Assembly: GCF_003334335.1 (NCBI RefSeq)
Contig: NZ_QOWQ01000012.1
Length of the DNA: 64,000 nt
Direction: 5' to 3' (one strand)
Source: Escherichia coli
GTDB lineage: Bacteria > Pseudomonadota > Gammaproteobacteria > Enterobacterales > Enterobacteriaceae
The translations under genes and the position numbers were made by a program. Position 1 is the first letter of the stretch; each line of letters opens with the position of its first letter. This document shows positions 4,690 to 11,005 of the stretch, in pieces. A model generated the notes under the pieces. That model was not told where the DNA came from. It did not search any database and saw nothing but the letters and a program-made list of their open reading frames with translations.

Positions 4690-7135
<2,446 letters not shown>

Positions 7136-7176: not shown

Positions 7177-7575
7177 ATGCAAACACAAATCAAAGTTCGT
7201 GGATATCATCTCGACGTTTACCAGCACGTCAACAACGCCCGCTACCTTGAATTTCTCGAAGAAGCCCGCTGGGATGGGTTGGAAAATAGCGACAGTTTTC
7301 AGTGGATGACGGCCCATAACATCGCCTTCGTCGTGGTCAATATCAATATTAACTATCGTCGCCCAGCGGTATTAAGTGACCTGTTAACTATTACCAGTCA
7401 GTTGCAGCAATTAAACGGTAAAAGCGGCATCTTAAGCCAGGTCATTACACTGGAGCCGGAAGGGCAGGTGGTAGCGGATGCGCTTATTACGTTTGTTTGT
7501 ATTGATCTTAAAACGCAGAAAGCATTAGCTCTGGAAGGGGAATTGCGCGAAAAGCTGGAGCAGATGGTTAAGTAA
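7177..7575 (+). CDS. fadM: Long-chain acyl-CoA thioesterase III (hotdog fold)
   Basis: 132-aa ORF MQTQIKVRGYHLDVYQHVNNARYLEFLEEARW, 4HBT/hotdog-family signature. Confidence 0.93.
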   Translation: MQTQIKVRGYHLDVYQHVNNARYLEFLEEARWDGLENSDSFQWMTAHNIAFVVVNININYRRPAVLSDLLTITSQLQQLNGKSGILSQVITLEPEGQVVADALITFVCIDLKTQKALALEGELREKLEQMVK

Positions 7576-7587
7576 ACGTTTTGTGGT

Positions 7588-7612
7588 GCCGGATGCTCAA
7601 GCCGCATCCGGC
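7588..7612. terminator. REP-like hairpin, probable bidirectional terminator between convergent fadM and queC
   Basis: Perfect inverted repeat gccggatgc / gcatccggc separated by a short loop. Confidence 0.5.
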
Positions 7613-7626
7613 GACACCCGGAATAA

Positions 7627-8322
7627 TTACCTCAACCCGGTTTTCTGCTTCATCGCTGCCATCACCGTCGGTTTATCGGCCAGATAATGATTCAAACCGT
7701 TGGCGCGTAAATTACATGCCGCACAATGACCGCAACCGTCGCCTTTAAAGCCGTTATAGCAGGTCAACGTTTCGTTACGGACTAAATCCAGTTTGCCGTA
7801 ATAATCTGCCAGCGCCCAGGTTTCCGCTTTATCAATCCACATCAGCGGCGTTTCAAAACGAATATCTTTCGCCATGCCCAAACTGACGGCATGGTTTAGT
7901 GCTTTCACAAACTCATCGCGGCAATCCGGGTAGCCGGAGAAATCCGTTTCGCAGACGCCAGTAATTACGGCTTCTGCTTTTACCTGATACGCATATATTG
8001 CCGCCAGCGTCAGGAACAAAATATTACGCCCTGGGACAAACGTATTCGGGATACCATCGGCTTCAGGTTCATAATCAGGCACCGGAATGCTGTCACGCGT
8101 CAGGCTACTGACCGCCAGCTCGTTGAGCAGGGTGACATCCAGCACCTTATGCGCGCGTGCCCCCAGTTTCAGCGCCAGTTCGCGTGCCACGTCGATTTCT
8201 GCGCGATGCCGCTGACCGTAATCGAACGTCACGCAATGGACTTCATCATATTGTTGTAATGCCTGCACCAGACAGGTGGTGGAATCCTGACCTCCACTGA
8301 ACACAACGACAGCACGTTTCAT
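7627..8322 (-). CDS. queC: 7-cyano-7-deazaguanine synthase (queuosine biosynthesis)
   Basis: 231-aa [21 protein letters not shown] (PP-loop ATPase SGGxDS) with C-terminal zinc-binding cysteines. Confidence 0.95.
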
Positions 8323-8386
8323 AGATAATCCTGCTTGAACAATAAAAGCGTTATGGTAACGCCTGCGATTAACCCGGACCAGCTAT

Positions 8387-10087
8387 TCATTGCGATGGCG
8401 CGGGAAGCCAGGCTTCGGTAAATTCAAACCAGCCGCGCGGTGTCAGTCGCACACCGTTCACGCCGGGAGGGGCACTAATGCGATAGTGATAGTTGAACAG
8501 CGGCGTCAGCGTCGCATCTGTCATTAACTGGCTAAAAACCGCTTTCAGGGCATTAAATCGGTTTTCTTCATCAGGCATTATTTGCACGGCATCCAGTGTC
8601 GATTGTAGATGTGCGTATGCTGGAGCGTCGAAAACATGTGGCCACAGCGGATCGCAGCGCAGCCATTGCTCCAGAGTATATTCCGGTGCTTCGCCAATTA
8701 ATCTGTCGCCCATCATGAGGTCTGCGTGTGCCTGTAGGGTCGTGTCGTCCCAGTTTTTTGCGTTATGAAAAATAATTGTGAGTTCACAGCCTTCCGCTGC
8801 CAGTGTCGCCTGTAGGCGTTCTGCCATGGTATGAAGTTCTATCGGTAGGTGATAAACCAGCGTCAAGGTTTTCGGTAGTTTGACTTCATCCGGTACCTGC
8901 CAATGCGGAATAGTCCAGCCTGGCAGTAATGCATGACTGGCGGTGATCAGGTTTTCTCCGACTTCTAACGTTTGTAATAAACCGGATTGATGAATAATGG
9001 AGATCACTTTTCGCGCCTGCCAGAGGGAGAGTCGGGGACTTTTGCGCAACGTCAAATAGCAAAAACCTAAACTGATGCCGCTACTGACCTGGCTGACCCG
9101 TTGCAGCTCCTCCGGTTTGCCGATGGTGATTTGCACGGGATGCCGACAACTGGTTCCCAAATCTTTTTCGAAAAGCGGCGGAGTTATCCAGTACTCAACC
9201 GCTTTAAGCAGCGGATGACGTAAATGGTAATAATCATGGCTTTCCAGGCGCACCAGCTCTGCTGTGAATTGTGTTAAGCGAAAAGGACCCGTGCCGATCA
9301 GTGGGAATTGCGGATGCGCCAGATGGCTGCAATAGCTCGCCAGCCGGTGCGCAAGCCAGTAATCAGGGCGATGTAAAAAGAAGGTCAGACACTGCGGATG
9401 GGTGACTTCAATACGCTTCACGCTAATAAATAATTGATCCAGTGCTGGCAGTTGTAACAGCATCAATAATCGCTGGTGTAAGTGTGAGGCTTTTACTGCA
9501 TCGCCGTTATGCCAGTGTAGGGTTGAACGAAGATAAAAGTCCCAGCGTAACCCGTCAGTAGAGGTTTCCCAGTGATGCGCTAAATCGCCAATCGGGCGCT
9601 GAGTATTATTATCGAAGCGGGTCAGGCCGGAAAATATCTGCCCGGCGAGATGCTGCTCGGCACGGCCGGGCAAAAAGCCTGGTTGTAGCGGTTCGAGCGG
9701 GCGATAGTAGGGAATACGCAACGTGGGTGTATCGTTTTGCCATTGTCCGCCCATAAACGGCTGTAACAGAGTGCGCAGCTCACCTGGGGCCAGTTGCGCC
9801 AGCTCCAGCACATCTTGCTGCTTTCCGGTTTCCAGTGCCTGTTCCATCATCGCATTGCGTAGCGATTCCGGCGTGACCAGAAAGCGTAATTGTCCGCGCT
9901 TTCCGCGTCCTGACTGCGCCTGCCACTCCAGCCATCCCGCCTCCTGTGCCTGACGCAACAGCGTACGAACATGGCGTTCGCTGCAAAAACAGCGTTCGGC
10001 CAGTTCGCTGACGGTGACGGTTTGCGGCTTTCCGGCGGAAGGTTGCCACAGACGTTGATACTGGTTAAGACGGTTGAGCAATCGCAT
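8387..10087 (-). CDS. ybaE: Uncharacterised SgrR-like protein (N-terminal winged-HTH plus solute-binding-protein family 5 domain)
   Basis: ORF track gives 571 aa from ATG 10102; the recognised protein begins MRLLNRLNQYQRLWQ at the internal ATG (10087), 566 aa. The start choice is uncertain. Confidence 0.85.
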   Translation of the reverse strand: MRLLNRLNQYQRLWQPSAGKPQTVTVSELAERCFCSERHVRTLLRQAQEAGWLEWQAQSGRGKRGQLRFLVTPESLRNAMMEQALETGKQQDVLELAQLAPGELRTLLQPFMGGQWQNDTPTLRIPYYRPLEPLQPGFLPGRAEQHLAGQIFSGLTRFDNNTQRPIGDLAHHWETSTDGLRWDFYLRSTLHWHNGDAVKASHLHQRLLMLLQLPALDQLFISVKRIEVTHPQCLTFFLHRPDYWLAHRLASYCSHLAHPQFPLIGTGPFRLTQFTAELVRLESHDYYHLRHPLLKAVEYWITPPLFEKDLGTSCRHPVQITIGKPEELQRVSQVSSGISLGFCYLTLRKSPRLSLWQARKVISIIHQSGLLQTLEVGENLITASHALLPGWTIPHWQVPDEVKLPKTLTLVYHLPIELHTMAERLQATLAAEGCELTIIFHNAKNWDDTTLQAHADLMMGDRLIGEAPEYTLEQWLRCDPLWPHVFDAPAYAHLQSTLDAVQIMPDEENRFNALKAVFSQLMTDATLTPLFNYHYRISAPPGVNGVRLTPRGWFEFTEAWLPAPSQ

Positions 10088-10186
10088 ATAAACCCGGAAC
10101 AATATTATTTAACTATTCACTATTACTTCCGTATATATCAGGTGATACTCAATCACCATTAACCGTGTCACAGAGTGGAGAAAGAA

Positions 10187-11005
10187 ATGGCTCGTCTGGC
10201 AGCATTTGATATGGATGGCACTTTATTGATGCCTGACCATCATTTAGGTGAGAAAACCCTCTCTACTTTGGCGCGACTGCGTGAACGCGACATTACCCTC
10301 ACTTTTGCCACGGGGCGTCATGCGCTGGAGATGCAGCATATTCTCGGGGCGCTATCGCTGGATGCGTATTTGATTACCGGCAACGGAACGCGCGTGCATT
10401 CTCTGGAAGGTGAACTTTTACATCGTGATGATTTACCTGCGGATGTCGCGGAGCTGGTGCTGTATCAGCAATGGGATACCCGAGCCAGCATGCATATCTT
10501 CAATGACGACGGTTGGTTTACCGGGAAAGAGATCCCTGCGTTGTTGCAGGCATTTGTCTATAGCGGTTTTCGTTATCAGATAATCGATGTCAAAAAAATG
10601 CCACTCGGCAGCGTCACCAAGATCTGCTTCTGTGGCGATCACGACGATCTTACACGCTTGCAGATCCAGCTATACGAAGCATTAGGCGAGCGTGCACATT
10701 TGTGTTTTTCCGCCACGGATTGCCTCGAAGTGCTGCCGGTGGGCTGCAATAAAGGCGCTGCATTGACGGTGCTGACCCAACATTTAGGTTTATCGTTGCG
10801 CGATTGCATGGCCTTTGGTGATGCGATGAACGATCGCGAAATGTTAGTCAGCGTCGGTAGCGGATTTATTATGGGCAATGCGATGCCGCAACTGCGCGCG
10901 GAGCTCCCGCATTTACCGGTGATTGGACATTGCCGAAATCAGGCTGTCTCTCACTATTTGACGCACTGGCTGGACTATCCACATCTACCTTATTCCCCCG
11001 AATAA
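10187..11005 (+). CDS. cof: HMP-PP phosphatase, HAD superfamily Cof
   Basis: Protein [14 protein letters not shown] (HAD motif I DxDGT) starting at ATG 10187, 272 aa; the ORF track extends 4 codons upstream. Confidence 0.93.

Follow-up and report, generated by a model that had tools for sequence, protein, structure and literature searches.

The ybaE gene of Escherichia coli encodes what sequence comparison and structure modelling identify as a cytoplasmic member of the SgrR family with two domains, in which a winged helix is joined to a solute-binding-protein (SBP)-like domain that lacks an export signal. The spacer between ybaE and the divergent gene cof holds a conserved non-coding block, and we propose that YbaE binds this block, controls the cof promoter, regulates its own gene and is switched by a ligand in the SBP-like domain, a proposal that in our judgement stands an even chance of being right. 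Positions refer to the window, the whole stretch of 64,000 nucleotides of E. coli DNA that was analysed, and are collected in Table 1.

The assignment of YbaE to the SgrR family is already known, from RefSeq, from Pfam and from the literature. The RefSeq/PGAP product name is "SgrR family transcriptional regulator", and Horler and Vanderpool in 2009 sorted 60 SgrR homologues into clades, of which Clade 2 is defined by YbaE with its function unassigned (PMC2760817). What we add here, as a new lead drawn from sequence, is a specific candidate operator and a candidate target. No published function for YbaE was found in the searchable literature that mentions the name, and the curated K-12 record reads "uncharacterized protein YbaE"; the statement of the earlier note that neither ligand nor targets are on record thus holds in the literature searched. 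A knockout of ybaE in the Keio collection was resistant to the lacritin peptide N-104 in a screen published in 2025, in which YbaE is called "periplasmic" (PMC12147183). The ybaE mRNA is induced under carbon limitation (PMC6390033). Transcription of ybaE also rises in one biofilm regime, and co-regulation of cof is unreported under either condition.

Table 1. Features of the ybaE locus discussed in the text, in window coordinates.
Feature	Position	Strand	Remarks
queC	7627..8322	-	64 nt downstream of ybaE, same strand; syntenic in 85/85 loci examined
Small hairpin GCGTTACCATAACGC followed by a T-run	8346..8364	-	in the ybaE/queC gap; terminator-like match
ybaE coding sequence, SgrR-family paralogue	8387..10087	-	566 codons + stop; ORF list, translation, RefSeq product name
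SBP-like domain of YbaE, residues ~113-566	8390..9751	-	presumed ligand sensor; Pfam, Foldseek, family profile, model
SgrR_N domain of YbaE, residues 7-119	9731..10069	-	wHTH ~2-69, then three-helix linker 73-111; Pfam E=5.3e-39
Conserved non-coding block, read toward cof: AAACCCGGAAC-N15-TTCACTATTACTTCCG-TATATATCAGGT-GATACT	10090..10149	+	proposed YbaE operator and cof promoter
5' part of the block, AAACCCGGAAC	10090-10100	+	followed by 15 variable bases
Distal half-site CGGAAC	10095..10100	+	starts 7 nt from the ybaE start codon
Invariant core TTCACTATTAsTTCCG (TTCACTATTACTTCCG in E. coli)	10116..10131	+	includes the proximal half-site TTCCG
Proximal half-site TTCCG	10127-10131	+	inverted repeat with the distal arm, GGAA-N27-TTCC
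GATACT, putative -10 of cof	10144..10149	+	12 nt (TATATATCAGGT) after the proximal half-site; inferred
cof, HMP-PP phosphatase (Cof-type HAD-IIB)	10187..11005	+	divergent from ybaE; NCBIfam NF011705 554 bits; annotation

Domain architecture of YbaE and its relation to SgrR

The translated ybaE frame begins, on the minus strand, with MRLLNRLNQYQRLWQ, and according to the list of open reading frames it could be extended upstream by at most five further in-frame codons, to a TTG at 10102. By hydropathy, which was the only measure used for this purpose, the N-terminus does not resemble an exported protein: the best nine-residue Kyte-Doolittle mean over the first 50 positions of that scan is 0.53, compared with 2.5 for the signal peptide of YbaV, no 19-residue segment of YbaE exceeds 1.1, and nine of the first 40 residues are charged. 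The hydropathy profile, together with the lack of room for an upstream extension, gave no cleavable signal peptide or lipobox.

An AlphaFold2 model built on a 91-sequence alignment (pLDDT 91.7, pTM 0.89) folds the N-terminus into a helix (residues 2-14), a strand (22-24), two helices (26-32 and 37-49) and two strands (53-56 and 65-69), the arrangement of a winged helix, and places a bilobed alpha/beta domain C-terminal to the linker. To this second domain Pfam assigns SBP_bac_5 (PF00496) at residues 165-303 with E=1.3e-16. Foldseek matches it to NikA, DppA and CntA with E about 1e-26 (NikA at E=4e-28) and a TM-score of about 0.6, and the YbaE family profile finds SBPs of the PDB with E down to 6e-52, all pointing to the cluster-C (family 5) fold. 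Neither Foldseek nor profile searches found a solved structure of an SgrR-family member in the PDB.

The earlier note had read from the sequence that YbaE carries no signal peptide, that a winged-helix N-terminus precedes an SBP fold of family 5, and that this is the architecture of an SgrR-type regulator rather than of a periplasmic binding protein; it had named signal-peptide, domain and structure prediction and a comparison with SgrR as the ways to check this. All of these came out in its favour, the hydropathy of the N-terminus bearing out the lack of a signal peptide, the SgrR_N match and the modelled fold the winged helix, the Pfam, Foldseek and profile searches the SBP fold, and the full-length alignment with SgrR and the lack of adjacent importer genes the SgrR-type architecture.

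The same evidence bears on the old annotation, in which YbaE would be the periplasmic SBP of an ABC importer. Its family-5 SBP fold would suit that role, several sources carry the older names "periplasmic substrate-binding component" or "OppA", and papers of 2017 and 2025 use the word "periplasmic". Yet the protein has no signal peptide and no room upstream for one, a 110-residue wHTH domain occupies the position that a signal peptide would take, and the annotated neighbourhood of ybaE holds no importer permease or ATPase genes, so that we regard this reading as hardly tenable at all. The SgrR-family class therefore corrects a label that persists in those two papers and in many database names. 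E. coli K-12 has two regulators of the SgrR type, and YbaE is one of them.

In E. coli, SgrR activates sgrS, setA and alaC during glucose-phosphate stress. Residues 9-565 of YbaE align collinearly with residues 9-550 of E. coli SgrR at 27% identity (BLASTP, E=9e-55), and the NCBIfam SgrR equivalog model NF010149 is matched over residues 8-564. As that match scores 231.9 bits and the cut-off of the model lies at 476 bits, YbaE is a paralogue and no SgrR equivalog. Among the listed AFDB50 matches, most of those that extend over both domains carry the name SgrR or SgrR-family regulator (TM 0.75-0.91). The surroundings differ as well, since the thiB...leuD neighbourhood of SgrR proper is absent and ybaE is flanked by cof, queC, fadM and decR, and there is no sgrS/sgrT-like RNA gene next to ybaE, an Rfam scan of positions 7500-10400 being without a match.

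Identity between the two proteins is distributed unevenly. In the DNA-binding region (YbaE residues 9-68) 32 of 60 positions are identical (53%), among them R38, H39, R41, T42 and the GRGKR of the wing, whereas the rest of the alignment has 127 identities in 519 positions (24%). This difference fits two regulators that read related half-sites and respond to different ligands; with a sensor domain only about 24% identical, the ligand of YbaE is likely to differ from that of SgrR.

It is conceivable that the sensor of YbaE is blind to ligand, the protein binding DNA either constitutively or under the control of another protein, or that ybaE is decaying. YbaE orthologues, at 65-80% identity, evolve faster than QueC (88-94%) and Cof (70-81%), some E. 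coli alleles are N-terminally truncated and others interrupted by insertion sequences, and we know of no ligand even for SgrR. We nevertheless think such a fate improbable, as the model of the SBP domain is of high confidence, as this domain contains residues that are near-invariant family-wide, including R129, E144, W182, H193 and D456, and as full-length ybaE persists across three bacterial families and in nearly all of 5426 complete E. coli genomes. A ybaE match occurs in 5425 of these genomes, and in 5376 it covers at least 80% of the gene; the K-12 gene is 100% identical in DNA to that of the window.

A conserved block in the spacer between ybaE and cof

The divergent genes ybaE and cof are separated by 99 bp, and the gene order cof <> ybaE -> queC is retained in every group of orthologous loci that was compared. 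In a set of 81 of these loci, queC is present in all 81 and cof in 79, the two exceptions being contig ends, and the same order is found in Hafnia, Serratia, Rahnella, Yersinia and Edwardsiella. YbaE orthologues occur throughout the Enterobacteriaceae at 65-95% identity; those of Edwardsiella, Hafnia, Obesumbacterium, Rahnella, Serratia, Rouxiella and Yersinia are 46-59% identical to the Edwardsiella protein. Erwiniaceae, Pectobacteriaceae and Morganellaceae did not appear among the orthologue matches listed, although the AFDB50 matches include one relative from the Erwiniaceae. Representatives at 34-39% identity lie beside GFO/IDH/MocA oxidoreductases, a PTS EIICB gene or fimbrial clusters, and as these contexts are unrelated they are uninformative on the role of YbaE itself.

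Farther out, decR and mdlAB follow on the cof side, and fadM, ybaV and ppiD on the queC side. The genes mdlA and mdlB, about 1.6 kb from ybaE beyond cof and decR, are annotated as multidrug efflux components with fused permease and ATP-binding parts. Since the whole lon-to-mdlB neighbourhood is co-inherited, synteny is no independent proof of a functional link, including any between queC and ybaE. The hairpin in the gap between these two genes is retained across genera with a compensatory change from T:A to C:G, and is possibly a weak terminator.

The spacer block has the layout CGGAAC-N26-TTCCG-N12-GATACT. An alignment of 72 distinct spacer sequences of Enterobacteriaceae shows it to be near-invariant, and of 85 orthologous loci of Enterobacteriaceae, Hafniaceae and Yersiniaceae, 83 have its core, the two others being cut by contig ends. 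Hafnia, Serratia, Rahnella, Yersinia and Edwardsiella are among the genera that bear the core, and the spacing between the two parts of the block is constant. In genera where the four-fold sites of cof are 42-43% identical to those of E. coli, the 22-nt core is 96-98% and the 61-nt block 84-86% identical. The pattern xATAyT at the -10-like position of cof is kept in all genera compared.

The block keeps its place relative to cof: the cof start is 48-59 nt away in 80 of 83 loci, whereas the ybaE start may be as near as 42 nt or as far as 324 nt, and of the nine loci with a spacer longer than 130 bp, eight have their additional DNA on the side of ybaE, Hafnia being the exception. The fixed distance on one side and the insertion of extra DNA on the other indicate that the block is tied to cof by selection. 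Neither blastn against E. coli genomes nor a search of the 64-kb window that tolerated up to 3 mismatches found a second copy, and a generic scan called no sigma-70 promoter in the spacer.

Two other candidates in this region were set aside. The palindrome GGTGATtgagtATCACC (10137-10153) is not conserved outside Escherichia and was rejected as an operator, and TGTGA motifs near cof were rejected as a CRP site on account of wrong spacing and an unconserved second half-site.

The arms CGGAA and UUCCG could also pair in the leader of the ybaE transcript, and the block might accordingly be an RNA element, a structured 5' leader of ybaE or of cof. Against this, its folding energy is ordinary (z = -0.60 and +0.70 on the two strands), Rfam holds no match, covariation is absent, and what lies between the arms is an invariant core instead of a variable loop; we hold an RNA element to be very improbable.

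The block, the sgrS promoter and a proposed mechanism for YbaE

One argument for reading the block as a site for YbaE comes from the sgrS promoter. In the sgrR spacer the start is followed by 5 nt, GGGAA, N28, TTCCC, the 12 nt TATATTAAGTCA and ATAATT, and the annotated 5' end of sgrS lies 6 nt past this last hexamer; in the ybaE spacer the start is followed by 7 nt, CGGAA, N27, TTCCG, a spacer that is likewise 12 nt long, and GATACT. The sequence TTCCsTATAT is common to the sgrS and cof spacers. When the sgrS spacers are compared among Salmonella, Kosakonia and a Photorhabdus-like genome, the conserved parts prove to be GGAAmT, CAATTT, TCCyTATATTA and the -10 hexamer, and from this conservation, as we read it, these elements may be contacts of SgrR. 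The SgrR target alaC has GTTCCT-N12-TTAATA upstream, in which the hexamer is -10-like only and the distal arm is absent. Base by base, the YbaE block matches neither the inner sgrS site nor that of alaC, the shared features being the arms, the spacing and TTCCsTATAT.

The specificity of these patterns is uneven. Taken alone, the five-base arms are statistically weak, and GGAA-N27/28-TTCC occurs twice in the 64-kb window. The composite pattern TTCC[CGT]-N12-NATAMT, which was drawn up with the data already in view, has a single match in 128 kb (both strands), at cof. Four distant paralogues were searched for a comparable repeat: the family member P0124 (locus L006), 37% identical, has a perfect CAGGAAC-N24-GTTCCTG upstream, and upstream of the paralogue loci L005, L008 and L010 no repeat of the GGAAC/GTTCC type is present.

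By its sequence and modelled fold YbaE is a one-component transcription factor, with the SBP-like domain as its presumed intracellular ligand sensor. Based on these comparisons we propose that it would bind the half-sites CGGAAC and (G/C)TTCCG, which lie about three helical turns apart and flank the invariant TTCACTATTA, and would thereby control the divergent cof promoter, the poor -35 region of which the proximal half-site is predicted to overlap. Such a position over the -35 region of cof is also that of the elements conserved in the sgrS promoter, which depends on SgrR. Under this model the transcript of cof would start near 10155-10158. As the distal half-site begins so close to the start codon of ybaE, YbaE probably also regulates its own gene, by repression. 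Ligand binding in the SBP-like domain would switch the activity of the regulator, and the output of the circuit would be the phosphatase Cof, dephosphorylating a phosphorylated metabolite that accumulates, in parallel with the route from SgrR through SgrS to YigL. The general proposal of Horler and Vanderpool that sgrR homologues target their divergent genes (PMC2760817) we count in favour of cof as the target.

The same block could serve another master. In that reading YbaE is still an SgrR-family regulator, but the block is no more than the cof promoter or is bound by another factor, and the targets of YbaE lie elsewhere, for example at queC or at unlinked genes. The block follows cof and not ybaE, as any control element of cof would, its single copy in the E. 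coli genomes and the window offers no regulon to read, and ybaE rises under carbon limitation and in the one biofilm regime without reported co-regulation of cof. However, a sigma-70 promoter does not require an invariant core as long as 22 nt, the layout repeats that of a promoter under the paralogue of YbaE, namely that of sgrS, the distal arm lies right beside the start codon of ybaE, and P0124 has the same GGAAC/GTTCC arms. We consider control of the block by another factor possible, if rather doubtful, and retain binding by YbaE as the preferred reading.

Cof, YigL and the comparison with known systems

The nature of the divergent gene extends the parallel with SgrR. The best NCBIfam family of Cof is the HMP-PP phosphatase equivalog NF011705 and the next best is YigL, with which Cof shares 39% identity over 260 residues (E=1e-59). 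In the stress response under SgrR control, SgrS activates the mRNA of the phosphatase YigL (PMC4021124). Taken together, the relationships of Cof to YigL and of YbaE to SgrR indicate that paralogous sensors are associated with paralogous phosphatases. Tentatively, and as a quite possible reading, we suggest that YbaE and Cof form a direct, metabolite-sensing module of sensor and phosphatase, the evolutionary twin of SgrR-(SgrS)-YigL, in which cof would be activated through a family-wide operator of the type GGAAC-N25-GTTCC. As for the ligand, we would guess by analogy at a phosphorylated small molecule, since the family-5 SBP AccA, which binds agrocinopine, sets a precedent for a phosphorylated-sugar ligand and since the link to Cof points the same way.

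If this is true, the SgrR family has a common operator grammar, and ybaE gains a target and a physiological role, for example in the control of HMP-PP or of an antimetabolite phosphate. Its confirmation would provide a DNA recognition rule for a widespread family of regulators.

Among known systems, SgrR is the closest to YbaE, with the same two-domain architecture, homology over the whole length and a regulator gene that is divergent from its presumed target, with only a short spacer between the two (67 bp for sgrR, 99 bp for ybaE); the divergent gene of ybaE, however, encodes a protein, a phosphatase, whereas that of sgrR is the small RNA sgrS. With the cluster-C SBPs NikA, DppA, OppA, CntA and AccA, YbaE shares the fold of residues ~113-566 and about 15% identity, and it differs from them in having neither a signal peptide nor partner permeases, in its N-terminal wHTH and in its cytoplasmic location. 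The LacI/GalR and LysR families follow the same logic, a cytoplasmic periplasmic-binding-protein-like domain fused to an HTH, but with another class of binding protein, other types of HTH and no sequence homology to YbaE. At the level of the circuit, the likeness is to SgrR -> SgrS -> YigL, as YbaE is paralogous to SgrR and Cof, a Cof-type HAD protein, to YigL; the difference is that YbaE would act on cof directly, at a divergent promoter and with no small RNA in between.

Features located in the window and at the related loci ("~", approximate)
Feature	Sequence	Coordinates	Strand
Hairpin between ybaE and queC	window	8346-8364	-
Conserved non-coding block, ybaE-cof spacer	window	10090-10149	
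PALP-family gene between decR homologue and cof	L092-L095	~1260-2510	
Tandem repeat in the cof leader	L092	3366-3500	
Inverted repeat upstream of the P0124 paralogue	L006	~5865-5945	
Two tandem SgrR-family genes	L008	6001-9795	

The neighbourhood of ybaE

The small hairpin GCGyTACCATArCGC that lies between ybaE and queC, usually followed by a T-run, is kept in many genera, and a compensatory change from T:A to C:G was found in it. Rfam gave zero matches to it; the hairpin may be a weak terminator of ybaE or an element controlling queC.

On the other side of the gene, in the loci of Hafnia, Serratia, Rahnella and Yersinia, the decR homologue and cof are separated by a gene for a PALP-family (pyridoxal-phosphate) enzyme, which is divergent from the decR homologue. 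In E. coli no PALP-family gene occupies this position.

Altered alleles and misleading labels

Several records present ybaE in an altered form. In one E. coli genome (NZ_OW968288.1) the gene is split by an IS4-like ISVsa5 element, and the ybaE match there overlaps two features, one annotated as 'ABC transporter substrate-binding protein' and the other as 'SgrR family transcriptional regulator'. The databases further contain a version of 444 aa without the wHTH domain, represented by a cluster of 305 sequences (records P0023 and P0022). The split gene and the shortened form may illustrate how the transporter label arises. The metagenome protein P0002 (818 aa) is a single case of a YbaE-QueC read-through fusion carrying PF12793, PF00496 and PF06508; it is probably the product of a stop-codon mutation or of an assembly error in one sample.

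The name itself calls for care. In PMC3041756 'ybaE' is described as 'fused deaminase and uracil reductase', a description at odds with the gene studied here; this looks like a name collision or a table error; therefore, matches to the name 'ybaE' in older data require checking.

The intergenic block, the paralogues and a possible family-wide operator

On the metagenome contigs L008 and L009, two SgrR-family genes stand in tandem, with chaperone-usher fimbrial clusters and a gene for a GerE-type regulator on their flanks; a fimbrial cluster lies near the paralogue of L010 as well.

Upstream of the paralogue P0124 and downstream of a PTS EIICB gene, locus L006 holds a perfect inverted repeat, CAGGAAC-N24-GTTCCTG. 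Its arms have the same sequence as those in the ybaE and sgrR spacers and its spacing is similar, and it is possible that this repeat represents a family-wide form of the operator.

In the Hafnia alvei locus (L092), the sole one in which the spacer has grown on the cof side, the cof leader contains three tandem copies of TTTTTGTGACGAATCA, which lie after the conserved block and before the start of cof.

The block in the ybaE-cof spacer is nearly invariant across Enterobacteriaceae, Hafniaceae and Yersiniaceae, its distance to cof is constant, and it carries no annotation in the sequence records examined. Its layout is the same as that of the SgrR-dependent sgrS promoter.
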